Assembly: GCA_044892525.1 (NCBI GenBank)
Contig: CM097885.1
Span: forward strand, 112,344,001 to 112,408,000
From: Schmidtea polychroa
Taxonomy: Eukaryota
Reading direction: 5' to 3'
DNA length: 64,000 nt
Shown in pieces: positions 1 through 36,895 of the stretch (positions within the stretch are counted from its first letter, which is position 1; every line of letters begins with the position of its first letter). Both the position numbers and the translations under genes were made by a program. The notes under the pieces were generated by a model. That model was not told the DNA's origin. It saw only the letters and a program-made list of their open reading frames with translations, and did not search any database.

Positions 1-2
1 CA

Positions 3-482
3 TCATTCTATAAAGAACAAATATTTGGTGACAGAAGAATGCCTAATTTTATTCTGGTAACATTTCAAAGTGAAACGCAATATATTGGATCGTATACTGC
101 TTCCAGCTCAATTTTCAAAAATTTTGGTGTTACTTCATTGACTTTGTCGAAAAATACTGATTATAGAGAAACATATACTCAAGATTTCGAGAATGATAAT
201 TACTGTGCGACATATATGCAGAGTATTGTTAGAAATCTGGGTTATTTAGATAAAAACTTGAATTGCGGAATAACTCTTGAAGAATTTAAAAGCAAATACC
301 CATTTTTCACATTTGTTCTAGCTCCCGATTTTGATTTAAATCAGAGTCAATTACCACAAAACGGGAATTTACGACTGGATATAAAGTTTGCAAAGGCCAT
401 TACTGAACCAGTACATGTTATAATATATGGAGTATTTGAAAATGAAGTTCAAATTACTGCAAATAGAACCGTGCTAGTATAA
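3..482 (+). CDS. Polinton major capsid protein (double jelly-roll, PY/hexon-like), C-terminal part; frame is open to the window edge
   Basis: C-terminal GNLRLDIKFAKAITEPVHVIIYGVFENEVQITANRTVLV* resembles the Polinton MCP terminus; lies directly upstream of the protease. Confidence 0.85.
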   Translation, partial: SFYKEQIFGDRRMPNFILVTFQSETQYIGSYTASSSIFKNFGVTSLTLSKNTDYRETYTQDFENDNYCATYMQSIVRNLGYLDKNLNCGITLEEFKSKYPFFTFVLAPDFDLNQSQLPQNGNLRLDIKFAKAITEPVHVIIYGVFENEVQITANRTVLV

Positions 483-510
483 ATGTATACAGAAACACCA
501 AAAAGTTGTC

Positions 511-894
511 ATGGAGTAAGTTTTTCAATACTGTTTAATTTATTAAAGTAGTTCTGTTCAGGTCAATAGAATTGGAAAACAGATATTGGGAAATGAATTT
601 GTAGGAGTTTTTCCTCTCGATAAAATCCCATATTTGAGCAATAATCAAGCCATAATCGTCAATACTCAATCGTCTCATCTTGGTGGAGAACATTGGATTG
701 CTATATATGTGAAACCTAGTAATATATTCGTGTTCGATCCTATGGGTTTCTATTACCCTGCTTTGTTGGTATCAAAACTACAAACAATGGGGAAACCTAT
801 TGTATATAATAAAACAATGTTTCAAAATCCCTTGACACAAACATGCGGTCAACATTGTTTAGCTTGGTTGTTGTATAAAAAATTTGATGATTAA
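511..894 (+). CDS. Adenain-family cysteine maturation protease, predicted spliced (exons 511-515 and 552-894)
   Basis: Motifs GVFPLD, NT..S..GGEHW (His), FDP (Asp), FQNP..QTCGQHC (Gln/Cys). The ORF has no in-frame ATG unless intron 516-551 (GTAAG...TAG) is removed, giving MDSVQVNRIGKQILG. Confidence 0.9.
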
Positions 895-1495
895 TAAANN
901 NNNNNNNNNNNNNNNNNNNNNNNNNNNNNNNNNNNNNNNNNNNNNNNNNNNNNNNNNNNNNNNNNNNNNNNNNNNNNNNNNNNNNNNNNNNNNNNNNNNN
1001 NNNNNNNNNNNNNNNNNNNNNNNNNNNNNNNNNNNNNNNNNNNNNNNNNNNNNNNNNNNNNNNNNNNNNNNNNNNNNNNNNNNNNNNNNNNNNNNNNNNN
1101 NNNNNNNNNNNNNNNNNNNNNNNNNNNNNNNNNNNNNNNNNNNNNNNNNNNNNNNNNNNNNNNNNNNNNNNNNNNNNNNNNNNNNNNNNNNNNNNNNNNN
1201 NNNNNNNNNNNNNNNNNNNNNNNNNNNNNNNNNNNNNNNNNNNNNNNNNNNNNNNNNNNNNNNNNNNNNNNNNNNNNNNNNNNNNNNNNNNNNNNNNNNN
1301 NNNNNNNNNNNNNNNNNNNNNNNNNNNNNNNNNNNNNNNNNNNNNNNNNNNNNNNNNNNNNNNNNNNNNNNNNNNNNNNNNNNNNNNNNNNNNNNNNNNN
1401 NNNNNNNNNNNNNNNNNNNNNNGAAAAATATTATTATCTAACTACACAAACATTGTGCATGCACAAAGATATGCAATCCCATTTGATACCATTTG

Positions 1496-3060: not shown

Positions 3061-3238
3061 TAATGATAATAATGATAATAATAATAATAATAATAAAATC
3101 ACACATTTATAGTTTACAAGACTTTATTAATATAAATACAATTTCATGATTAATATTAATTGATAAATATAATTAACAGGCAAATTATATCCACATTACT
3201 GCCAGGCTTCAACTGGTCACTCAAATTTATGTCACAAA

Positions 3239-4390
3239 GTGATGAAAAAATATTATGGTCGTAAATTTTATGGCATCAAGTACTATATATGCCCAATATG
3301 CGAGACTTCCCATAGCATTAAATATTTAGAGTTTTACAGTATACATAAATCCCATTTAAATCAGTTCTCTTTAAATAAAAAGGATTTATTTAACAAACTA
3401 CGAAATACTGCAAAACCTATAATTAAAACTAATGTAAATAATACAAAACCTGTAAATAATATTACAAAACCTGTAAATAATAATACAAAACCTGTAAATA
3501 ATATTACAAAACCTGTAAATAATAATACAAAACCTGTAAATAATATTACAAAACCTGTAAATAATAATACAAAACATGTAAATAATAATACAAAACATGT
3601 AAATAATATTACAAAACCTCTAATTAATAATGTTATTAATGTAAATAATAATTTAAAAAGACCTGCTGTTAGTATTGGGTCTGATGCTCCCTCTAAAATT
3701 AATAAATTAGAACAAATAACTGTGGTTAATAATATTCAAGTAGGCGGTTCAGTCGATATTGACGATGAACCTGAAATCGAAATTGATTTTAAGGGGGTTC
3801 GAAAGAATCTAAGATTTAATGTAGAAAAGGATAACATCATTCAAATATCCATAACCGATAAAATCGTTAATAAGTTAAATCATGAAATAAACAGAATGGG
3901 GTCGGTGAAAATACAATTCTCTGTTTTGATTCAATTTGAAAAAGATGGTGAAATTAAAGATAATTTCTTCTCGAATAGGGCAGAGGCTTTTTCAGATAGT
4001 TTTCTAAGTGAGGGGGTTCACAAATTAAATAATAAAATAGAAAAATTCACATATTTGGGTAGTGGATGGCGGGTTGTTAAAATCAAAGAAATAGATTTTA
4101 TATTAACAAAATTTACACATATGAATAGGCTAGCTGGACATAGTTATATCCCCACCCCATCATCTTTAAATTCTAAAAATGCAATAGTAAACGTTAAAAA
4201 CACTGATGATATGTGCTTTATATATAGTATTTTAGCACTTTTAAAACGTAATGTCGTACATAGTCATAGGTACCGTGTTAGTTCCTATGAAAATTATCTC
4301 AACGAGTTAAATTTTGACCCCATTTCCGACTGTCCAATGAAACTATGTGATATTCCTAAATTCGAGATGAAAAATAAGGATTTAATTTAG
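3239..4390 (+). CDS. pPolB: N-terminal portion of protein-primed PolB (terminal-protein/accessory region), separated from the catalytic part by a frameshift
   Basis: GSGWRVVKIKEI, GHSYIPTPSSLNSKNAIVNVKNTDDMCFIYSIL and IPKFE..N motifs are typical of the Polinton PolB N-region; the frame continues after removing 5 nt at 4385-4389. Confidence 0.85.
   Translation: MMKKYYGRKFYGIKYYICPICETSHSIKYLEFYSIHKSHLNQFSLNKKDLFNKLRNTAKPIIKTNVNNTKPVNNITKPVNNNTKPVNNITKPVNNNTKPVNNITKPVNNNTKHVNNNTKHVNNITKPLINNVINVNNNLKRPAVSIGSDAPSKINKLEQITVVNNIQVGGSVDIDDEPEIEIDFKGVRKNLRFNVEKDNIIQISITDKIVNKLNHEINRMGSVKIQFSVLIQFEKDGEIKDNFFSNRAEAFSDSFLSEGVHKLNNKIEKFTYLGSGWRVVKIKEIDFILTKFTHMNRLAGHSYIPTPSSLNSKNAIVNVKNTDDMCFIYSILALLKRNVVHSHRYRVSSYENYLNELNFDPISDCPMKLCDIPKFEMKNKDLI
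3434..3625 (+). repeat. In-frame 21-nt / 7-aa tandem repeat (N/I)TKPVNN inside the PolB N-terminus
   Basis: About 9 units, alternating in a 14-aa higher-order period. Confidence 0.9.
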
Positions 4391-7269
4391 CAATAAATGT
4401 TTTAACTTATAGAACAACCCCTGCTAAGCCTTTTGAAAATATAGTTGACGATAATTATATTCCACATCATCCTCAATTGGATATAATTCACCGATCTAAG
4501 GTTATAGGTGGTGAACCCATATACTTACTTTTATTGGAAGATGGTGATAATTTTCATTACACCGCAGTTTTTAATTTGCAAAGATTAATGAACTCGCACC
4601 GTAGTAGCTCTTGTAGTGTTCAAATTAAAGTGAACTGGTGCCCCCATTGTCTCAATGGTTTTCGACTTAAAAATGCATTTGATATTCACGTTGCTTTATG
4701 CATTAAAAACCAGATAGGTACTACTTTATACACGCTACCCAAAGATAAAAATTTAATTTTTCAAAATTATGCGAAAACCATAACCCCGCCATTCGTGATA
4801 TATGCAGACTTTGAATCAATTTTACCGGGGGATATAATACACCATCAAAAGCATTTGCCAATAACAGCAGGTTTATTATTAATAAATAATTATAATAACT
4901 CTAAATTTTATTATGAGTTTGTTGGGGATGATTGTATCTTATCTTTCTTGCGTAAGGTGGAGGAAATTGCTATGACAATTGTCCTGCCATATTACGAAAT
5001 TAATGGGAAAAAGCCCATGCAGACCTTGTCTTTCGCTGAAGAGCGGGCCTTTCGTGATTCCAGAACCTGCTACCTTTGTAAAAAATTCATTAAGAATAGA
5101 GTTAGGGATCATTGTCACTTTTCAGGTAAGTATCTTGGTGCTGCCTGTATGAAATGTAATGTTTCTCGACGAATTCAGAAACAGTTACCTGTGGTTTTTC
5201 ACAATTTGAGGGGGTATGATCTTCATCATATTTTGAAGTATGGTTTGAATAATTTTCCTTCTTGGGAATTAAATATTATTCCGACCACTACTGAGAAATT
5301 CATCTCTCTTATCGCGTACATTAACAAATTGTCTGTTCGTTTTATTGACAGCATGCAGTTTGTTAATTCATCTTTAGCAAAAGCAGTTAAGACTCTTTCC
5401 GATCTGCCTTTAACTTCTTCTGTTTTCGATGGCGCAATTGTTCGAGCCAAAGGTATCTTTCCTTATGACTTTGCAACTTCGCTTGAGGTTCTGGAATCGA
5501 CTCTTGAATTGCCTCCTATTTGGGATTCTGTGTCTAATGATGAATATGCATTAGCCCAAGTAATTTGGACTCAGCAAAACTGCAACAACATGTTAGATTA
5601 CATGTTAACTTACCTTAAATTAGACGTGTTTCTCCTCGCAGACTATTTCCAACAATTCCGTGCAAAGGCCATTGCTTACAATGGTCTTGAGCCTCTTAAT
5701 TTCTATGGCATTCCCGGTATGTCATGGGCCTCTGCGCTTATGACATTAACGGAACCCATTGAACTTTTGCAGGACATGGAAATGTTTAATTTCTATGAAG
5801 GAGGGATACGGGGTGGGTTAACATTTGTTAACAAACATTATGTTGCAAGTTCTGAAGACACAGAACTCTTGTATATTGATATTAATAACTTGTATGGTTG
5901 GGCCTTAAGCCAAAATCTGCCTTATGCTGACTTTGTTTGGGTGTATGATGATCTTGATTCTGTCTTGAATGAATGTATGAATGCTGATATCGATAACCTT
6001 CCATATGGTTATACTATGGAGGTAGATATCGATATACCTGATTGTTTGCATGACTTTCTGAATGATTTTCCTCTTGCTCCGGAAAAGATGTGCCCGCCAA
6101 ATTCTAAAGTTGAGAAGCTGATGCTCACGCATTGGCCGAAGAAGAACCATGTTCTTCATTGGCGACTTCTCAAGTTGTATATAGAATTGGGGGCTATTAT
6201 TAAAAATGTACATAGAGCAATCAAATTTAAGCATGCACCCATTTTCAAATCTTACATAGACAAAAACACTAATTTGAGAGCCAATTCTACATGCGAATTA
6301 TATAGGGATCTATACAAATTATTTAATAATAGTCTGTATGGGAAATCCGTAGAAAACCTTAAAAAACGGATGAATTTGAGGCTATGCAATTCAGCTGAAA
6401 AGATGATTGTATATGCTTCAAAGCCGACTTTCAAGAAATCTATCAAAATTGATGATGACTTGATTGCTGCACATCTATATAAGGATTCTATATGTTTAGA
6501 CAGGCCTAGTTACATTGGCCAAACGGTGCTAGACCTGTCTAAACTGAGGATGTACCAGTTACAGTATATAGAATTGGCTAAATATAGAAATGAATTTAAA
6601 TGTGAGATAAATATCGTTGCCGGCGATACTGACTCCTTTTTTCTTGAGGTTAGGCACTGTAAGCTTGACATTCTTTTGCCGGCAATGATTCGTGACAATC
6701 TTTTAGACACTTCCAACTATGACCCTGCACATCCCTTATACTCTAGAAACCTTGATTCGGTGATAGGTAAATTTAAAGATGAAAGTAAAGGTCTAGGGTA
6801 TAAGGAATGGGTTTTCTTAAGACCCAAGTGCTATAGTTTGTTAGGGGCTAAAGATCATTTAAAAGCAAAAGGAGTCAGGTTAATAGGTACAGAAATTAGG
6901 CACGATTCATATTTAGAATGCTACAATAACAACGTAGTATTTTCTGTGCCACAAAGTAGGATAGGGACGCGGAACCATCAATTGTACACATTTAAAAACA
7001 ATAAAATCGCGTTGACAAACAACGACGACAAGCGGTTTTGGGTGGGGAAAAATTCCAGTCTCGCATTTGGTCATTATTTAGCACTAGATGATATAAATGA
7101 TGATCAAATATTTGAAGAAGTTGGGCCACTATTCGGAGGATTAAGTCCAGATTTTGTTTCTGGTGATGAGGAAGTGGGTCCACTTTTCAATGGTTTAAGT
7201 CCAGATTTCGATTCTGGTGATGATCCTAATGATAAAAGAGATATAGATGATATTTTATTGTCAGACTAA
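4387..7269 (+). CDS. pPolB: Protein-primed family B DNA polymerase, catalytic part (3'-5' exonuclease, EndoVII/HNH-like Zn insertion, polymerase)
   Basis: ExoI YADFES, ExoII FHNLRGYD, ExoIII YLKLDV, PolA YIDINNLYG, PolB KLFNNSLYGKS, PolC AGDTDS, GKFKDE, LRPKCY; CYLC..RDHCHFSG..GAACMKCN insertion. No internal stops. Confidence 0.97.
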   Translation, partial: LAINVLTYRTTPAKPFENIVDDNYIPHHPQLDIIHRSKVIGGEPIYLLLLEDGDNFHYTAVFNLQRLMNSHRSSSCSVQIKVNWCPHCLNGFRLKNAFDIHVALCIKNQIGTTLYTLPKDKNLIFQNYAKTITPPFVIYADFESILPGDIIHHQKHLPITAGLLLINNYNNSKFYYEFVGDDCILSFLRKVEEIAMTIVLPYYEINGKKPMQTLSFAEERAFRDSRTCYLCKKFIKNRVRDHCHFSGKYLGAACMKCNVSRRIQKQLPVVFHNLRGYDLHHILKYGLNNFPSWELNIIPTTTEKFISLIAYINKLSVRFIDSMQFVNSSLAKAVKTLSDLPLTSSVFDGAIVRAKGIFPYDFATSLEVLESTLELPPIWDSVSNDEYALAQVIWTQQNCNNMLDYMLTYLKLDVFLLADYFQQFRAKAIAYNGLEPLNFYGIPGMSWASALMTLTEPIELLQDMEMFNFYEGGIRGGLTFVNKHYVASSEDTELLYIDINNLYGWALSQNLPYADFVWVYDDLDSVLNECMNADIDNLPYGYTMEVDIDIPDCLHDFLNDFPLAPEKMCPPNSKVEKLMLTHWPKKNHVLHWRLLKLYIELGAIIKNVHRAIKFKHAPIFKSYIDKNTNLRANSTCELYRDLYKLFNNSLYGKSVENLKKRMNLRLCNSAEKMIVYASKPTFKKSIKIDDDLIAAHLYKDSICLDRPSYIGQTVLDLSKLRMYQLQYIELAKYRNEFKCEINIVAGDTDSFFLEVRHCKLDILLPAMIRDNLLDTSNYDPAHPLYSRNLDSVIGKFKDESKGLGYKEWVFLRPKCYSLLGAKDHLKAKGVRLIGTEIRHDSYLECYNNNVVFSVPQSRIGTRNHQLYTFKNNKIALTNNDDKRFWVGKNSSLAFGHYLALDDINDDQIFEEVGPLFGGLSPDFVSGDEEVGPLFNGLSPDFDSGDDPNDKRDIDDILLSD

Positions 7270-7918: not shown

Positions 7919-9059
7919 TTAAAAATAGTAATAAAACTTAGAAAATAATAATATGTAATCAACGATTTAAACAAAATTATATTATTACGTATTCGATAAT
8001 TAAAACAAAAATTATTAGTTCTAAAAATATTTGGCATCGTTCTAAAAATATTAGACATCGTTCTAAAAATATGACGTAATCGTTCTAAAAATATTTGGCA
8101 TCGTTCTAAAATTATGACGTAATCATTCTAAAAATATTAGGCATCATTCTAAAAATATTAGGCATCATTCTAAAAGTATGATGTAATCATTCTAAAAATA
8201 ATAGACATCGTTCTAAAAATATTTGGCATCATTCTAAAATATTAGACATCATTCTAAAAATGTGATGAGTCATTGTCTTTGTTCTAAAAATGTGATGAGT
8301 CATCGTATGATAAAAATCTATATCTCATTAGAAAGTTCTTGCACAGAGCTTTAAAATAAGCTATCGATCAATATAATATGTTGGCGGGAACAATAATTTT
8401 TGGGATGAAAAAAAGTAGGTCCCCGCTGGATCACTTAATTTAAAAAAAATTACGTAATAGTTCTAAAAATATTAGGCATCGTTCTAAAAATATTAGGCAT
8501 TGATTACGTAATAGTTCTAAAAATATTAGGCATCGTTCTAAAAATATTTGGCATCGTTCTAAAATTATGACGTAATCATTCTAAAAATATTAGGCATCAT
8601 TCTAAAAGTATGATGTAATCATTCTAAAAATAATAGACATCGTTCTAAAAATATTTGGCATCATTCTAAAATATTAGACATCATTCTAAAAATGTGATGA
8701 GTCATTGTCTTTGTTCTAAAAATGTGATGAGTCATCGTATGATAAAAATCTATATCTCATTAGAAAGTTCTTGCACAGAGCTTTAAAATAAGCTATCGAT
8801 CAATATAATATGTTGGCGGGAACAATAATTTTTGGGATGAAAAAAAGTAGGTCCCCGCTGGATCACTTAATTTAAAAAAAATTACGTAATAGTTCTAAAA
8901 ATATTAGGCATCGTTCTAAAAATATTAGGCATTGATTACGTAATAGTTCTAAAAATATTAGGCATCGTTCTAAAAAAAAAATAAAATTTTTTCCCGGGGG
9001 GGGAGGGGGTATATGTGATCTGGAGGGGACATGGCCGGGAGGGGACACATCATACTACT
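7550..9059. repeat. Right terminal (TIR) / subterminal repeat region of Polinton 1
   Basis: Repeat pair flanking the gap at 7554-7880; ~20-nt GTTCTAAAAATATT(A/T)GGCATC arrays at 8030-8975; a 432-bp tandem duplication (marker at 8261 and 8693); G-rich tip ending ACTACT. The partner TIR is outside the window. Confidence 0.7.
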
Positions 9060-10465: not shown

Positions 10466-10811
10466 TGGAGGTGTTCACGAAGTTAGAAAACATTCCAGCA
10501 TTTAGAGGCAGAGACGGTTATATAGTAAACTGCACCACTAATTTCACTGATTTTATATCAGATCGATGAAGTTAATGTCACTAGTAGTTATCACTAGAAG
10601 TTATATTAACATAATTTGTGGTAATGTAAATATTAGTAAAGCTAAAGGATTTGTATTACAAAGACATAAGAGATCTCTTTTATCATTTGTTAACACAAAA
10701 TATCGAAATCTAATGAGAAAAATAATGTTTAAACAACAATGCAGTTTTTTAGGTACATTAATTCCAATTGTATTATCGGCTATAAGCACAATCTCGTCAT
10801 TAAATTCTTAA
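10466..10811 (+). pseudogene. Small basic Polinton protein (pX-like core protein)
   Basis: NIICGNVNIS...RHKRSL...KQQCSFLGTLIPIVLSAI resembles the LNILKGNV...QxGGFL..L protein found before Polinton integrases; 5' part is out of frame. Confidence 0.55.
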
Positions 10812-10831
10812 AATATAATATCATAGAAATA

Positions 10832-12010
10832 ATGGGTGCTAAGAATTCATTACCGGATAAACATAATTTAGATTTAAATATATTAACATCGTGTTGAAGG
10901 AAACATTTTCCAAAAAAAGGTCAAATCAAAGAAGAAAATATTAGAGAAAAAACTCAAAACGATTTGGACAAACCCGAAAGATCCAGATGGTTTTGGTGGT
11001 GTAGAAAAACTTGCAAAAAGAGTAAATAATTCAAAGAAAGAAACTCAAATATGGTTATCTAATCAATTAGCCTACAGTCTCAATAAGCCAATGTTAAAAA
11101 GATTCCCCACGAGGTCTTATAAAACATTTAATGTTAATGATTTATGGCAAATGGATTTAATGGAAATGATTTCATTTTCAAAAATTAATAAAGGATACAA
11201 ATATATTTTGACATGAATTGATGTATTTAATAGATACACTCATGCTATCCCAACAAAATCTAAATCAGCTAATGAAATGGCTGATGCATTAAAAACATTA
11301 TTTGCTGACGGACAGCCTCGTAATTTACAAACATATTTGGGTAAAATTATAAATTAAATAATTTTAAAATTTAGGTAAAGAATTTTATAATAGTAAAGTT
11401 AAAGAAATTATCAAAGGAATAAATCATTACTCAATATTTTCACAATATAAAGCAGCACATGTGGAAAGATTCAATCGTACTTTAAGAGATCGTTTGAAAA
11501 AATATTTTGTATATCAAGGCGATAAAACGTGGATAAATGTTTTGTCGAAAATAATTTACAGTTACAATTTTTCACCTCGTAGAGGATTAAATGGGATAAG
11601 ACCAATCGATATTTATTCAACAAATAGTAATGATACTTGAATATCACAACAAAATAAATCAAAAACAAAAAAGCCAAAATATAAAAAGTAGGAGACCTTG
11701 TTAGAATAAGTAAAATCAGTGCTTCTCCATTCATCAAGAATTTTGATAACAATTGGAGTGATGAAGTTTTTAAAATATTGAAAATAGATACTAATCAAAT
11801 CCGGTCATGCACTTTATTACAGATAATGAAAACGATCAAGTCAGTGGCAAATTCTACGAACAAGAACTACAAGTCATTCCATCACCCACAATCTTCAGAA
11901 TTCAAGAGATTTTAAAAACTAAATCAGGCGGGAAATATAAACAATACTATGTGAAATGGCATGGTTATAAAATTCCTAGCTGGATATCTGAAAACCAATT
12001 GATTAAATAA
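10832..12010 (+). pseudogene. Polinton retroviral-like integrase with C-terminal chromodomain; predicted 34-nt intron at 11341-11374
   Basis: WTNPKDPDGFGG, DLWQMDL, YILT*IDVF, LQT(Y)LG|GKEFYN, HVERFNRTL; chromodomain FRIQEILK...YYVKWHGY..PSWI. Has stops and a D-to-Y change at the second catalytic position. Confidence 0.92.
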
Positions 12011-12015
12011 ATATT

Positions 12016-13035
12016 ATGAAGGAAAACCAGTTTTATATGAATTTACCTAGTAATAGTTGTCCTCTTATTTATCCTGATAATAATGCTAGCAATTTTAAAG
12101 TTGAATTTCAAAACTCAATTTATTTGAATAGTAAGTGGGAAGTAGCTTTGATTGATTTTACATTTGTGTATAAACATTTTCCGTATAACAGTTATTCATC
12201 GGTACAATACGAATTTAAATAATTATGCAAAGAAACTAAATACATGAAATTCGATAATGAAAACAAAATCTTAGAAATTTTAAATTCTACATACAATCCA
12301 GATGTTGACGTGTTCTTGGAAAGATGTGAAAACGTAGTGATTGTTTGTCCACATGTTCTATTTAAAATATCATTTCTTGACACCAAACATGCATCTAAGT
12401 TTGAATTAAAAACCATATCAATCATTAGCAAAACTGACCATTGTCGAATTAAATTATCTAAATTTACTGAAAATAATATCATTGAACAAATTCGAATAAC
12501 TATAAATTACGATATCAAGACAAAATTCGAACATTATTTTGAAGATGAATTATTCTTAACTACTTTATCAGAGTTGCGAGGGTATTTAATGACAATTAAT
12601 CCATCTCCATTTAAAGAAATAAATCTTCAAAATCAAGAATTGGTAAAAATAACACTTGTAGATGATATTTCAAATATCACCTTTGATCAAAAATTAACAA
12701 AAGCTTTAGGATTAAAGAATCAAACTTATATTGAAAAAGACTTTGTTGGTGTGAAAATTCCATAAATATTTAAAATGCATCAACAAATGTTTATTTATTC
12801 AAATATTATTGAACCAATAAATGTTGGTGATGTAAGAGTTCCTCTATTAAAATCGAAATGGATTAAAAGATATGAATAGGGAGAGGTAGTTAAGTTAGAA
12901 ATAAAGAACCCAATGTACCTTCCAATTTCATCTTCATCTATAAACATTAAAATTAATATTCGCAATGATAGTGGAAAATTAGTTAAATTTTCAAAAGACA
13001 CCAAAACACATTTAACACTACATTTTCGTAAATGA
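12016..13035 (+). pseudogene. Minor capsid protein (penton, PZ)
   Basis: N-terminal FYMNLPSNS..YPDNNASNF..KWEVALID; C-terminal MFIYSNIIEPINVGDVRVPLL...LTLHFRK*; internal stops. Confidence 0.85.
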
Positions 13036-13144
13036 ATAATCCTGATATTGTAAACTTTTATAGTAATAGTCAATCTGGTGAAGATTTACCATATTTTGTT
13101 GGTAAACAATATTGAACAGGTTGGTTAAAAACAATAGGTGGATT

Positions 13145-14881
13145 CAGCGCCGGCTCTAGCATTAGTAGCGCCCCGATGCGAAACTCATTTTAGACGCCCA
13201 TTTATTTTATTGGTTTTTTGGAATTAACGTAATTTAATTGGCAATATTAAATTTGTAATAAAAACATTAAAAAATTAATAATAATTCTTTTCCAAGTGAA
13301 ATACAGGTTTTATTTTGTTTATATATTTTTTTATTTTATTGAAACAATATTATAATATACAAAAATTACATAACATACATATATTTTGTATAAAAATTGA
13401 CAAAACTATTATTCTAGATATTTACTTTTCTAGCTTTTAAACTGCCAAATTCATCAATTAAATTATGTATATCTAATTTGTCGCATATATCACTTTCAAT
13501 CGATATCATTGCTAAACCAACTAATCTTTCTTGTGAAATTGTTGATCTTAAATAATTTTTAATTAGTTTAAGCTTCGAAAAAGATCGTTCTCCGCTAGCA
13601 ACTGAAACTGGTAAAGTTAAAAATATTTTAATAGCAATTACAAAATTGGGAAAAATGGAATCCAGTAGATTTTTATATATATATTGCAAGATGTTTAGTG
13701 GGTTTTCAAAGTCTTTCAAAAATTCCTTTGCTATTTTTATTTCATTAAATAATTCTGTTGCAGATATATCTTTTTTCTCGCCATCGGTTAGCATTATTTC
13801 TAAATCAGAACAATGTTTTTTTAATGTATTATCATCCATTTTGTTAATTTCTTTTATATTATGTATAAATTCAAATTTTTCACTATATTTTGTGAAAAGA
13901 TTAAACCTTTCTTTTAAAGAATTGATAGTAATATCTAAAATTGGCAGAAAAAATGATATTTTATATTTAAGTATCGGATCAACTGGCGTTTCGTCTACAG
14001 ATTCATAACCAAAAATTTTTTTCTTTCTTCTTCGTAACGTATTATCTTTGAATTTCGCAGGTATTTCTAAATCAGCTGCTATATTTTCTGCCGTTTGAAG
14101 AATAAGACTAAAATTTTCATCGGATCTATATTCTTCAATAAATTTAATAAGACTATTTAACGCAACTGAAGAAACATTTAAGTTTTGATTTGGATTTTGG
14201 AGCAGTTTACTAACAACGTTAACTTTACTTAAAACATCGTACCAAATAACCACTGAACATATAAATTCATACTCTTTTATTTTGAAAGCCACAGCCTTAG
14301 CTTCATGCTTTGTATTATTATCTATTTCTAGGTTTTCATAAATGTCAACTAAAGCATCTAAAATTTCAGCTATTTCAAACCTAAGTGGACGAAGGGCATC
14401 GACTCTTGATTCCCACCTGGTGGCTGACAAAGGTGGCTGAACACTTTTTTATTTTACTATTAAAATTTTAATATTAAATTTTTTTTTTATTAGCGAAAAA
14501 AGTTTACCAAATAACAACTGAACTGATTGAAAACTGAATAGAACTGGTAGACTTTTAAAATAATTTTTTTTAGCATTAATTTTTTTAATCGAAATAACTA
14601 AACCGAATATAGCAGGCCGTTTCAAAATAAATTTATGCATGTATAATTTATTTTGTTTTGCGAAATAATTAAACAATTCTTAAACACTTCGAAAACTAGT
14701 AGGCCAGTAGTTTTTCAAGGAAATTTTATTTAAAAAAAAAAAAATTCTTATTAAAAAAAAATTTGTTAATGGTTTTTTTGTTAAATATTAAAAAGAAACT
14801 AAAATTCTAAATTGTTTAGCGCCCTTTCCGAGAGGCGCCCCGATGCTTTGCATCCACCGCTTCCAACTAAAGCCGGCCCTG
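13145..14881 (-). mobile_element. Internally deleted hAT transposon
   Basis: TIRs CAGCGCCGGCTCTAG / CAGGGCCGGCTTTAG; perfect 8-bp TSD GGTGGATT at 13137-13144 and 14882-14889. Confidence 0.95.
13414..14430 (-). pseudogene. hAT transposase C-terminal half (ZMYM1-like group)
   Basis: SATRWESR and the dimerization domain LTLPVSVASGERSFSKLKLIKNYLRSTISQERL; N-terminal half is missing. Confidence 0.9.
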
Positions 14882-15000
14882 GGTGGATTTGCTTTAAAAG
14901 AGATTCAAATTACATCCAATCGTACAGTACTAGTGTAAATAAAGTTTGAAAATTATTGGCTTGAACTATAAACTAAATTAGGAAACAATAATTATTAAAA

Positions 15001-15290
15001 ATGAAGTAAGAATTTAATTTTAATTACTTTAATTTATTGATAATAGTTCTATTCAGATTGAATACATAGGTCGAAGAATTGTTCGGAGCTGAATTTCTTG
15101 GAGTTTTTTCATTAGATAAAATACCATATATTGATGTAAACAAGGTTTTAATTTTAAATACTCAATCTTGTAATTTCAAGTGAGAACTTTGGCTCGCAGT
15201 TTATGTGAAACCGGAAAAAATATATGCATTTGATCCCATGGGGTTTAATTATCCTATTTTCAATTATTTTCCATATAGGTCTGATTGTTT
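15001..15290 (+). pseudogene. Adenain protease of Polinton 2; predicted 41-nt intron at 15006-15046; frameshifted
   Basis: Spliced start MNSIQIEYIG; EFLGVFSLDKIPY, LILNTQS, WLAVYVKPEKIYAFDPMGFNYP align with the element 1 protease. Confidence 0.85.
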
Positions 15291-16852: not shown

Positions 16853-17965
16853 TGTAAGATAGCAGCTCACCTGCCCTTTATTTATTAATGACAGTGGACA
16901 GTATTAACATGATGATCGTCAAAGGCACATTGATCGCGAACATCTCAAGTCATGAGTGGTTTGTTACCGAGTCAACGATCTACTATTAACCTTATTTTAT
17001 TCACGTTCTTGAGGATAAAAAAATAATAATAAATAACAATAAATAAACAAAATTACCTGAGGGAAAATCGTCGTAATAAACGGGATCTATGGAAACTCAC
17101 AGAGGAAAACGAAAGTAAAAGAAATGAGAAATGAGAAAAGGTATCAAACAAAAGAAGTCGAACAAGAAATTAAAACAAAGGTCATCAGTAATTAAAGAGA
17201 ACAAAAAGGGGAAAATGAATTTCAAATTCCAAAAAAACAAAAACTGAAAATACATATCTCGACAGCCTGCAGAGATAGCGGATTCAAATAAAAAGGCGGA
17301 TAAACGAAAAATGGAAATTATAAAAAAATTATCTCGATAGCTGTCAGAGATAGTGGGAAGCAAAATTATGTGTTCCAAAGGTAAATTAGGAAAAACAGAA
17401 AGATAAGCCTAAGTACCACAAAATGATGAGCTATATAAAAAAGAGGCAGAAGCAGAAGAAAACGACGATGAAATTGTATTAGAAAGTGGAGACGAGAAAT
17501 TTGAGAGGAAAATTTGTAACGGAAATTGTGGAAATTCGCCGAAACGAATTGTTAAGATAATAATGGTTGGAGAAAATCGCCAGAAAAGAATTGTTAGAAA
17601 CCAGACGAGAAGTTATTGAGGTAATTGAAGAAAGTTGTCGAAGATAATTAAACGAGAAACAAAAACTAATTATTGATCAAAGAGTGCTAAAGAAAACGCT
17701 TAGCGAGTAGAATCCAAGTCACGCAAAGAAAACAACCAGCTCAAATTCACCGTTGTTAGAACCAATCGGTAGCTAGTGATCCCCAACCCAGTATTATTCG
17801 TCACAGAGTGTCGTAATAAGCGCTGTGTAATTGTCGGCCAGATTGTTGAACCAATCGTGTTATTGAGTAGTGAAAATTATTTGTGATTATCAATAAAATT
17901 TCATGTTATCAATTGTTATTTGTGGGTTAGTTAAAAGCACGCTTGGAGTCAAAGTAAGAATTACA
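16853..17965 (+). mobile_element. Gypsy-type 3' LTR preceded by a polypurine tract
   Basis: AAAGGGGAGTAG precedes TGTAA...TTACA termini; internal AATAAA near the 3' end. Confidence 0.65.
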
Positions 17966-17985
17966 AAAATTACCTGATTAAATTA

Positions 17986-18900
17986 CAAAATTACCTGAGG
18001 GAAAATCGTCGTAATAAACGGGATCTATGGAAACTCACAGAGGAAAACGAAAGTAAAAGAAATGAGAAATGAGAAAAGGTATCAAACAAAAGAAGTCGAA
18101 CAAGAAATTAAAACAAAGGTCATCAGTAATTAAAGAGAACAAAAAGGGGAAAATGAATTTCAAATTCCAAAAAAACAAAAACTGAAAATACATATCTCGA
18201 CAGCCTGCAGAGATAGCGGATTCAAATAAAAAGGCGGATAAACGAAAAATGGAAATTATAAAAAAATTATCTCGATAGCTGTCAGAGATAGTGGGAAGCA
18301 AAATTATGTGTTCCAAAGGTAAATTAGGAAAAACAGAAAGATAAGCCTAAGTACCACAAAATGATGAGCTATATAAAAAAGAGGCAGAAGCAGAAGAAAA
18401 CGACGATGAAATTGTATTAGAAAGTGGAGACGAGAAATTTGAGAGGAAAATTTGTAACGGAAATTGTGGAAATTCGCCGAAACGAATTGTTAAGATAATA
18501 ATGGTTGGAGAAAATCGCCAGAAAAGAATTGTTAGAAACCAGACGAGAAGTTATTGAGGTAATTGAAGAAAGTTGTCGAAGATAATTAAACGAGAAACAA
18601 AAACTAATTATTGATCAAAGAGTGCTAAAGAAAACGCTTAGCGAGTAGAATCCAAGTCACGCAAAGAAAACAACCAGCTCAAATTCACCGTTGTTAGAAC
18701 CAATCGGTAGCTAGTGATCCCCAACCCAGTATTATTCGTCACAGAGTGTCGTAATAAGCGCTGTGTAATTGTCGGCCAGATTGTTGAACCAATCGTGTTA
18801 TTGAGTAGTGAAAATTATTTGTGATTATCAATAAAATTTCATGTTATCAATTGTTATTTGTGGGTTAGTTAAAAGCACGCTTGGAGTCAAAGTAAGAATT
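17986..18900 (+). repeat. Tandem duplicate (938-bp period) of the 3' part of the LTR
   Basis: Identical track ORFs at 17097 and 18035; sequence looks identical by eye. Confidence 0.9.
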
Positions 18901-34271: not shown

Positions 34272-36895
34272 GGGTGGCAAAACTTTCAAGTCTTGCGGGC
34301 GACTTTTAACTAAATTAAATCTGGCGGTCTACCAGAAAAACTATTTTCAATTGTTACCTGTAGTTATTCTATTTATTCTATTTAAATACAAAACGAATTA
34401 GAAAAAAACTTATAATACTTTACTAGAACGTAAACATATCTTAATATAATATTATTTACTGCTACTACTTGCACCTGATACGTGGCACTGCATCTTATCA
34501 GCAAGTTCTTCGTATTTCGGGCAATAGGAGCTTATGGCGATCCGCAAGCATGATTCCAAATGATCATCTGTCAAACAAGATCGATGTTTTGTTTTAATGA
34601 CATTCATTGAAGAAAAGGCTGATTCACAAAGATAGGTGGATCCAAAAAATGCGGACATATATTCAACTACTCTCCGCAAAATTGGATATTTTTCTTCTGA
34701 AATAAGATTCCAAAAATTATCTTCGGTTGTAGCTCTTGATTTTAAGTAAATGTCGCTTTTCAACGCTATTATCTCATCTTCTAAGCAAGCTGAATCTGAA
34801 TCCAGAAATTCATTAATCTGAGTAGCGATCTCCTCTGTATCAATAACATCATTAAACGGGAATGACATGAACATAGCAATATTTGCAATTTTAGATAAAT
34901 CTGCGAAACGTGTGTTAAATTCATTTAAAAGGGTAGTAATTTGATTTGTATATTTATCGTAAAGAATTCCTGGCGCATTTTTGGATTCTTCTTCCATGTT
35001 TTTAAAATGTTTCAAATCACCCCGTTCTAGTTGACGCACAAACAAGGACAGTTTCTCTTTAAACGTCTTTACTGCCGTTATCATGTCAAGAATTGATTTG
35101 TGTCTCCCCTGAAGCTGTAAATTTAATTTATTCAGGTGCTCTGTAATGTCGCAAAGAAAAGCAAGATTTATCAGCCAACTTTTATCCTCCAGTTCGGGAT
35201 ATAATTCTTCTCTTCCAGTCAAAAACTGTTTTATTCCGGGCAAAAGATCTCTAAATCGTTTTAAAAATGCTGCACGGCTAAGCCATCTTACATCCGTGTG
35301 TAACAATAATTCAGTATTTTCAATTTCACATTGTTCAAGCAAAGTTCGAAATTGACGTCGTTGTAGACTTTTTGCACGTATCGAATTTACTATTTTAAAC
35401 GCAATATTCATTACATAATTAGAGTTCAACACTTTGGAGCATAAGGTTTGCTGGTGGATAATGCAATGATACGAATGAAAACTGGGAATTTCTTCATCAT
35501 TTTTGCAAAGTGTTACAAATCCGACATGTTTTCCGATCATAGACGGAGCTCCATCCGTGGTAATTGATACCAACTTGTGAATCGGGAAATGGGTGCGACT
35601 TATAAAAGACTTGAATAAATTGTAAATATCTTGACCCCTTGTTTGTCCTTTCATTGGAAGAATAGTCAATAATTCTTCTCTGGTTGACATATCATCAAAA
35701 ACCATTCGAATGAAGATGCATAGTTGCGCAGTATCAGTGAAATCTGTAGATTCATCAAATTGCAAAGAGAAAAAGCGGCATTTTCGAATATCTTGCCGCA
35801 AAATATCTTCCAAGTTTTTGCTAATGTCCACCATTCTTTGCGTGCTAGTATTGCGCGTCAATGACATATTGTTGATACAATCCATTATTTCGGATTTATT
35901 TTTAAAATCTTTGAATAACACCTCACCAGCTTCAACAAACGCCTGTTTCCATATTTCGCCATCTCCAAAAGGTTTTTTATGTTTCATCAAAATATTAACT
36001 ACCTTGAATGATGCTAGGGTAGCTGTTTTTGATTTTGAGTTAAATTTCGTAAAAAAAGTTTGTTGTGCACCTAATTGAGACTTTAACTGCTTGACTTTGT
36101 CTTTTCGTACCTCGGAATGTAATGGAAAGTCATACTGTTTGTGCACTGTTCGAAAATGTCGTTCAACGTTAGCTCTTTTAGGTAGTGCTACGTTTGAATT
36201 ACAAATGAGACAAACACACTTATCTTTCATCATTATGAAAAAAAATTCCTGTTCCCATTCAGTATTATAATGGTACGTTTTAGTTTTTTTGGCCGGTTGT
36301 GTCATTGGGGCTAAAACAAGAAAATAATAAAAGCTAAAATAAATTTAATATGAAAATTAATGTTAGACACACTTACATACTCAAAAATTAAAAATGTTAA
36401 CTTTTATAAAGAATTTTTTTTAATAAAAAAATTTTGAAATTAATATTATAAGCAGGTATTATTCAATACTGAATACTTCAAGCTTTCAAATTTTTCTAAC
36501 GAAAACAATTTGATTTCAAAATTGAAATAGACAAACACACGTTTGTTGTATTTTATTTTGGTTGTTTTTTATTTTTTTATTCCTTATCGAAGATTGTAGC
36601 GTCAATGTTTTGCTTTTATTTTATGGCCTACTTGTTCAAACACATGAAATTTATTCTGATTATTAGCTAACTGTATATATTTGAATTTCAAACTAAAAAT
36701 TTACTACACTCTGAGTGTTATCTGACTAATATTATGTTTCTTATTGGAATTTTTTTGTCATATGAATCGAAACTTATTTTAAATATGTTTATAAAGTTAG
36801 AAATTCAATAAATAAAAAACTGATTTTTATATGCAATTTTCCATAGTGCTAGCGGGCTACTTTCGATAGCTACGCGGTCGACGCTTTTGCCAGCC

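Follow-up and report, generated by a model that had tools for sequence, protein, structure and literature searches.

The closest described relatives of the system studied here are the Maverick/Polinton elements (adintovirus-type) of animals with their adenain-like protease, and the core genes of such elements have been described as intronless and annotated as plain open reading frames (ORFs). Core genes are reported to be intronless in 134 intact vertebrate Mavericks (PMC8097293), which is said there to agree with earlier work by Kapitonov and Jurka in 2006. Likewise, the core genes of a Caenorhabditis element, the protease included, were intronless, and introns were found only in its cargo genes (bioRxiv 10.1101/2022.07.12.499685). 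Here we analysed a 64,000-nucleotide (nt) stretch of Schmidtea polychroa DNA (contig CM097885.1, positions 112,344,001 to 112,408,000 of the forward strand; hereafter the window), which contains a Maverick/Polinton with an adenain-type (C5) cysteine protease gene. This element resembles the animal elements in that the C5 protease comes right after the probable major capsid gene and in its relative of the protein-primed polymerase, and an integrase is present in a neighbouring element. Unlike in the vertebrate and Caenorhabditis Mavericks, a core virion gene here has a conserved predicted intron. We propose that the virion-maturation protease of this Maverick/Polinton lineage very probably carries an inherited spliceosomal intron, which would be removed by the host and would place the start codon at position 511 (ATG511).

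Spliceosomal-type introns inside this element class are known from dinoflagellate Maverick/Polinton-like elements, in which the introners are repeated, transposon-derived and mostly inserted after integration (PMC11957031); the protease intron, in contrast, keeps one position across lineages, and its interior has diverged almost to chance level. Cryptophyte Polinton-like viruses carry group I introns in a small unannotated gene which, like the protease gene, adjoins the major capsid gene, but those introns are self-splicing and 309-376 base pairs (bp) long (PMC12220804), whereas the introns described here are GT-AG introns of 36-43 nt in the protease. In the excerpts of the literature on introns in these elements and on planarian Polintons, no conserved spliceosomal Maverick-protease intron was reported, and spliceosomal core-gene introns were not mentioned in those of PMC11296320, PMC8502044, PMC10748475, PMC6431247, PMC11244446 and bioRxiv 10.64898/2026.07.28.741278; Repbase entries, subscription papers and supplements may hold such annotations. 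The elements studied here depart from the regularity of intronless core genes, which is descriptive and not defining, by predicted introns in the protease, the 5′ region of the polymerase and one integrase.

We found that the protease is encoded in an intact frame at 552..894 (exon 2; plus strand, as are all features of this gene and its upstream region below), which matched Pfam PF00770 (E 1.2e-6). The profile of alignment A1 matched solved adenovirus proteases (E 7e-4 to 1.5e-3), and the columns of the His, Asp and Gln/Cys motifs were invariant in this alignment, except for the Trp beside the His. The protease frame spans 547-894, with a stop codon just 5′ of 547 and no in-frame ATG ahead of the conserved core. 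Read without splicing, ATG511 gives two codons and then a stop, and removal of a predicted phase-2 GT-AG intron of 36 nt (516..551) joins the ATG and two further bases (511..515, the coding part of exon 1) to the protease frame. The donor GTAAGT starts at 516, the acceptor AG ends at 551, and the intron is 81% A+T. The GT...AG ends, the A+T-rich composition (81-91% in the 10/10 copies that carry the intron) and the restoration of the frame upon removal are those of a U2-type spliceosomal intron. A tandem AAG acceptor (546..548) is also in frame with ATG511, giving a 33-nt intron and one extra residue, and is present only in the window copy among nine copies checked. A competing TTCAG acceptor lies 10 nt downstream (557..561) and is out of frame with ATG511.

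Taken alone, the window copy is weak evidence for an intron, and conservation decides. When the upstream region was shuffled, which is a loose null, some in-frame GTAA solution appeared in 3-11% of trials (9.8% for the window copy); the exact placement with GTAA appeared in 0.015-0.075% of shuffles for the six copies tested, and for the window copy the exact placement had a P of about 0.0005-0.002. We compared the gene with 15 related metagenome loci (L001-L015), and the intron rises above chance because the window holds another copy with the same layout and 8 of the 15 loci share it. In these eight (L001-L008; 50-62% protein identity, five lineages), ATG plus two bases is followed by GTAA, an intron of 37-43 nt in all, and AG. 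The second window copy is degenerate and its protease is a broken fragment (14967..15255, plus strand; tblastn 52%), with a promoter-like box at 14967-14973, an ATG at 15001 and a 41-nt intron at 15006-15046. Altogether, the intron has the same position and phase in nine copies other than the window copy, and ATG-[AG]A followed by GTAA was present in 10/10 intron-bearing copies. In these copies the Met lies nine codons before a conserved Gly (10 copies, 7 lineages), and an uninterrupted ATG was found at exactly the matching place in L009, L011-L013 and L015, and two codons earlier in L010; the distant L014 has neither pattern.

The intron itself varies freely. Its length ranges from 36 to 43 nt across copies and covers all three remainders modulo 3, and near-identical pairs differ by 1 or 2 nt (38/37 and 41/39) with the protein kept. 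Identity of the intron interiors between lineages was 0.56-0.71, compared with 0.55-0.66 after shuffling (15 pairs of six copies). Position and phase are therefore conserved while length and interior are free, as is characteristic of spliceosomal introns. An identity as introners is not supported: among the copies compared, no recognisably similar, repeated intron sequence was found, and interiors from different lineages resemble each other little more than shuffled sequence does. The preliminary description had proposed that the start codon is ATG511, joined to the protease only by removal of 516-551, and had named an in-frame ATG with no conserved GTAAG in other copies as the observation that would speak against it. 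The sequence is as stated there and the layout is conserved; close relatives keep ATG-NN directly followed by GTAA, together with the matching AG.

Database proteins carry what may be a trace of the same intron. A hydrophobic stretch precedes the conserved start in P0001, P0002, P0003, P0008, P0010, P0012 and P0024, which probably reflects gene callers crossing the intron, as judged from the proteins. P0004 and P0011 have an uninterrupted start, yet are nested among intron-signature rows in the protease tree. A further close homologue with an uninterrupted start, P0041, lies outside the tree. These three proteins represent either products of splicing or a subfamily without the intron. In viral contigs, a search by protein pattern gave 92 pattern matches and no confirmed protease relative; a DNA pattern of box, ATG, donor and acceptor gave 42 matches, which we regard as chance because none encodes the protease.

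The start at ATG511 is also marked by its upstream region. A TATAAA-type promoter-like box (478..484) overlaps the capsid stop codon and is the sole ATAAA[CT] in window positions 1-898. An ATAAA[CT] box stands 31-34 nt before the protease ATG in 10/10 intron-bearing copies, against a background of 0.4-2.7% of positions (five loci), and this spacing is kept whether the box lies in the capsid frame, on the capsid stop codon or in the spacer. In six intronless relatives the box was found at -37 to -74. This putative promoter element also occurs within 60 nt of 14/18 other gene starts checked. As a separate observation, the boxes at these 14/18 starts are of the TATAAAC type, with 32-56 nt between them and the starts of capsid, core-like, downstream and polymerase genes (window, L001, L003, L004, L006, L007, L009-L011). 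We further surveyed the start distance in 157 database proteins, 137 of which have a G-V-F-P-type motif. The first Met was 19 residues before the motif in 26/137, the commonest distance, and 17-21 residues before it in 82/137. ATG511 gives exactly this distance of 19.

Several observations weigh against the proposed intron. A YTRAY branch-point-like word was present in 7/10 copies at varying distances, and the 36-nt intron is shorter than the 45-85 nt peak of short introns in one planarian (PMC13594981). In L006 and L007 a chance in-frame upstream ATG makes unspliced read-through formally possible; L008, the twin of L007, has no such ATG. The protease tree (47 rows) has 21/44 inner branches open and is too poorly resolved to show a single origin. 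The sequencing runs also gave no sign of splicing: none of the 18 listed runs is recorded as RNA, four were examined as contigs, and two of these were guessed to be RNA and may be DNA. Among the 15 of 37 contig joints that were listed, none connected 515 to 549, 552 or 562, but the predicted first exon of ~10-15 nt would be too short to register. In the two runs guessed to be RNA, an X1 contig covers 466-602 without a splice, and the intron sequence is present in contigs of X2. A dip in depth at 481-540 in run X4 was discarded as a sign of splicing, as this run is labelled as a different organism and the dip is accounted for by a diverged spacer and intron.

Based on these results, we propose that transcription is most likely driven by the TATAAA-type box ~32 nt upstream and would start a few bases before ATG511. 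The host spliceosome would then cut out 516-551 in cis and join the ATG and two bases to exon 2, and the product would be a protease of ~115 amino acids (aa) with an N-terminus as long as that of its intronless relatives. By default, the intron would be a constitutive part of the gene architecture. Since the unspliced RNA encodes only a two-codon peptide, making the protease would require nuclear splicing of the host type, and in most copies a protein of the correct size can be read only once the intron is removed. A start codon and first codons supplied by a short upstream exon are also found in the polymerase and terminal-protein mRNAs of the adenovirus E2B region, except that this exon lies far away and is common to several early genes, and the adenovirus protease frame is not known to be interrupted. 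A less certain step is that the weak features of the intron probably lead to inefficient splicing and a low output of protease.

This last step raises the question of whether selection keeps the intron weak, so that it acts as a splicing attenuator: most transcripts would be retained or mis-spliced, and a fraction would make protease. Such a function would be added to the inherited intron and is compatible with it; we regard it as possible, with the balance of probability somewhat on the other side. We found an out-of-frame YAG 7-11 nt past the acceptor in 9/9 copies and 7/7 lineages, arising from different codons, and splicing to it would give peptides of 2-33 codons. The downstream YAG was present in 0/6 intronless relatives and 0/13 other element introns (9 independent positions), and resampling of synonymous codons gave a product of per-lineage chances of 0.0015. 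Furthermore, the acceptor is TTTAG in 13/13 control element introns versus 2/10 protease introns. However, the +6 to +12 interval for YAG was picked with the data already in view, one ancestral state may have been counted repeatedly given the relatedness of the lineages, and a conserved N-terminal Gln/Glu favours AG at this place (per-lineage chance 0.27-0.61). Together, the shortness of the intron, its mostly weak acceptor and the nearby out-of-frame decoy YAG, the better acceptor of the two, may throttle protease output, as far as the sequence indicates. In its broadest form, which we offer tentatively, a cap-proximal micro-intron would have persisted through 40-50% protein divergence in a lineage of animal Mavericks, where it would throttle the protease by way of splicing; all transcripts would come from the shared late-type box, and the splicing state of the host could set the fraction that makes protease.

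The preliminary description had gone further and proposed that protease production can be switched by intron retention. Retention would then vary with the state of the cell or the stage of the element and time the protease. Retention does stop translation after two codons in 10/10 copies, the unspliced contigs came from the two runs guessed to be RNA, and the protease is the sole interrupted late-type gene in related loci, where the ORFs of the capsid, penton-like, core-like and downstream genes run on unbroken. However, the immediate stop is given automatically by a phase-2 GTAA donor and is thus no sign of control, and the runs may be DNA. Moreover, short introns occur in other genes of these elements, so the presence of an intron alone implies no switch. 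We consider regulated retention unlikely.

The same description had also suggested alternative N-termini, in which an ATG at 483..485 would be joined through a 46-nt intron to the acceptor ending at 561, giving a second, longer protease form. This combination is formally in frame in the window copy, its TTCAG acceptor is strong, and 46 nt is nearer to the typical intron size. However, ATG483 lies inside the promoter-like box, and by the usual TATA spacing it would be upstream of any start that the box drives; the codon is probably unused. A single base at 498 or 499 is lacking in 188/418 and 163/476 of the depth in X1, in all of X2 and in ~17% and ~4% in X10 (depth is not copy number), so that in sister copies without this base the ATG483-to-561 frame is lost. 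The combination was found in 0/8 other copies checked, with different ad hoc solutions in L007 and L008. Its product would also lack the conserved first residues, and the Met would lie 25 residues before the motif, a distance that occurs in 0/137 homologues. We therefore rejected alternative N-termini as a conserved feature, and a second form made in this way is very improbable. Least probable of all is the absence of any cis intron, with the start supplied by a non-AUG or read-through start or by a trans-spliced leader. Flatworm spliced leaders have AUG at their end and are able to provide start codons (PMC9851317), and such a leader joined at the downstream acceptor would be in frame in 4/7 lineages (+10 or +7). 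In 3/7 (+11, +8, +8) it would be out of frame, and the invariant ATG-NN-GTAA and the box at fixed distance would be left unexplained.

A conserved spliceosomal intron in the protease departs from the description of Maverick core genes as intronless, and it means that transcription and RNA processing of these genes fall to the nuclear machinery of the host. That a dependence on splicing has been kept through long divergence suggests continued selection for mature particles. It also bears on annotation: ORF callers mis-start the protease gene, which may cause elements that are intact to be counted as broken; of the database proteins, several run on across the intron or begin late. A spliced junction would provide a DNA-proof marker of late gene expression, by which it would become directly testable whether Mavericks enter a virion-making phase. 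For planarians, smedwi-2 knockdown and differentiation are described as conditions in which Polintons are de-repressed (PMC8532177). Should the weak acceptor prove functional, it would explain why an enzyme of low copy number stays scarce while the capsid protein is abundant, and if the throttle holds, it would be the first post-transcriptional control of particle maturation in Mavericks.

The element around the protease is a Maverick/Polinton, and it resides in an AT-rich eukaryote. Upstream of the protease, 3..482 (stop codon at 480-482, plus strand) is the end of a capsid-type ORF, probably that of the major capsid protein, with 53-62% identity to ORFs of 407-435 aa located 5′ of the protease in L001, L002 and L005-L008. 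A Pfam scan of window positions 3-479 and of the L001 capsid ORF gave no match; the L001 ORF had an Atlas look-alike score of 0.98 to clusters whose members have PF21738 (DJR-like) in 24% of cases, which serves as a lead only. A polymerase relative at 4378-7269 is 54% identical to an L008 ORF that matches PF03175 (protein-primed family B polymerase; E 7.5e-28), and the window ORF itself gave no match to PF03175 or to a solved structure. Within the window, no integrase belongs to the protease-bearing element; the neighbouring element has one, and PF00665 was found on most of 72 homologues of that integrase. No packaging ATPase was recognised among the ORFs scanned, a scan that included no search aimed at an ATPase. 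The sequence ACTACT at 9054-9059 is a candidate right end of the element, on account of what we take to be its terminal motif; the other end is outside the window. The region 7997-9059, which ends in this candidate terminus, is repeat-rich and subterminal and contains a 550-bp duplication (94%).

Other genes of these elements also carry predicted short GT-AG introns that keep their frames open, which speaks for the protease intron. We found five GT-AG introns in L003 (1590-2243) and four in L004 (1483-1993), all 41-46 nt long and in the 5′ part of the polymerase, at matching positions and with conserved exons that are all open. In the window, the 5′ ORF of the polymerase (3173-4390) has no ATG at its start; an acceptor-like CAG is present at 3180, a matching donor was not found, and the ORF may be joined to upstream exons. 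The polymerase frame shifts at ~4378-4390, a place with no short-intron candidate. A gene at 1638-2203 encodes an acidic product and is open across four exons separated by three phase-1 introns of 46-47 nt, with no ATAAA[CT] box upstream; by eye, one of its exon starts resembles an exon start in the polymerase leader of L003 and L004. A scan of 19000-64000 for short host introns gave three unvalidated candidates of 51, 48 and 29 nt.

The region 10500-15260 holds the second, degenerate Maverick, which consists of an integrase, penton-like and core-like genes, a capsid end and the protease fragment described above, and is interrupted at 13414-14448 by what remains of a hAT transposase (PF05699). 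Its integrase contains a 34-nt GT-AG intron candidate at 11341-11374. The integrase motif is continuous at this place in 69/72 homologues (63 with the strict pattern and 6 with variants; 3 are without the motif); the candidate is apparently lineage-specific. Further downstream, 17047-17962 and 17985-18900 form an exact 916-bp tandem duplication, which is possibly recent or an assembly artefact, and on the minus strand a 630-aa ORF at 34452-36344 looks intact and, by eye, resembles a hAT-type transposase.
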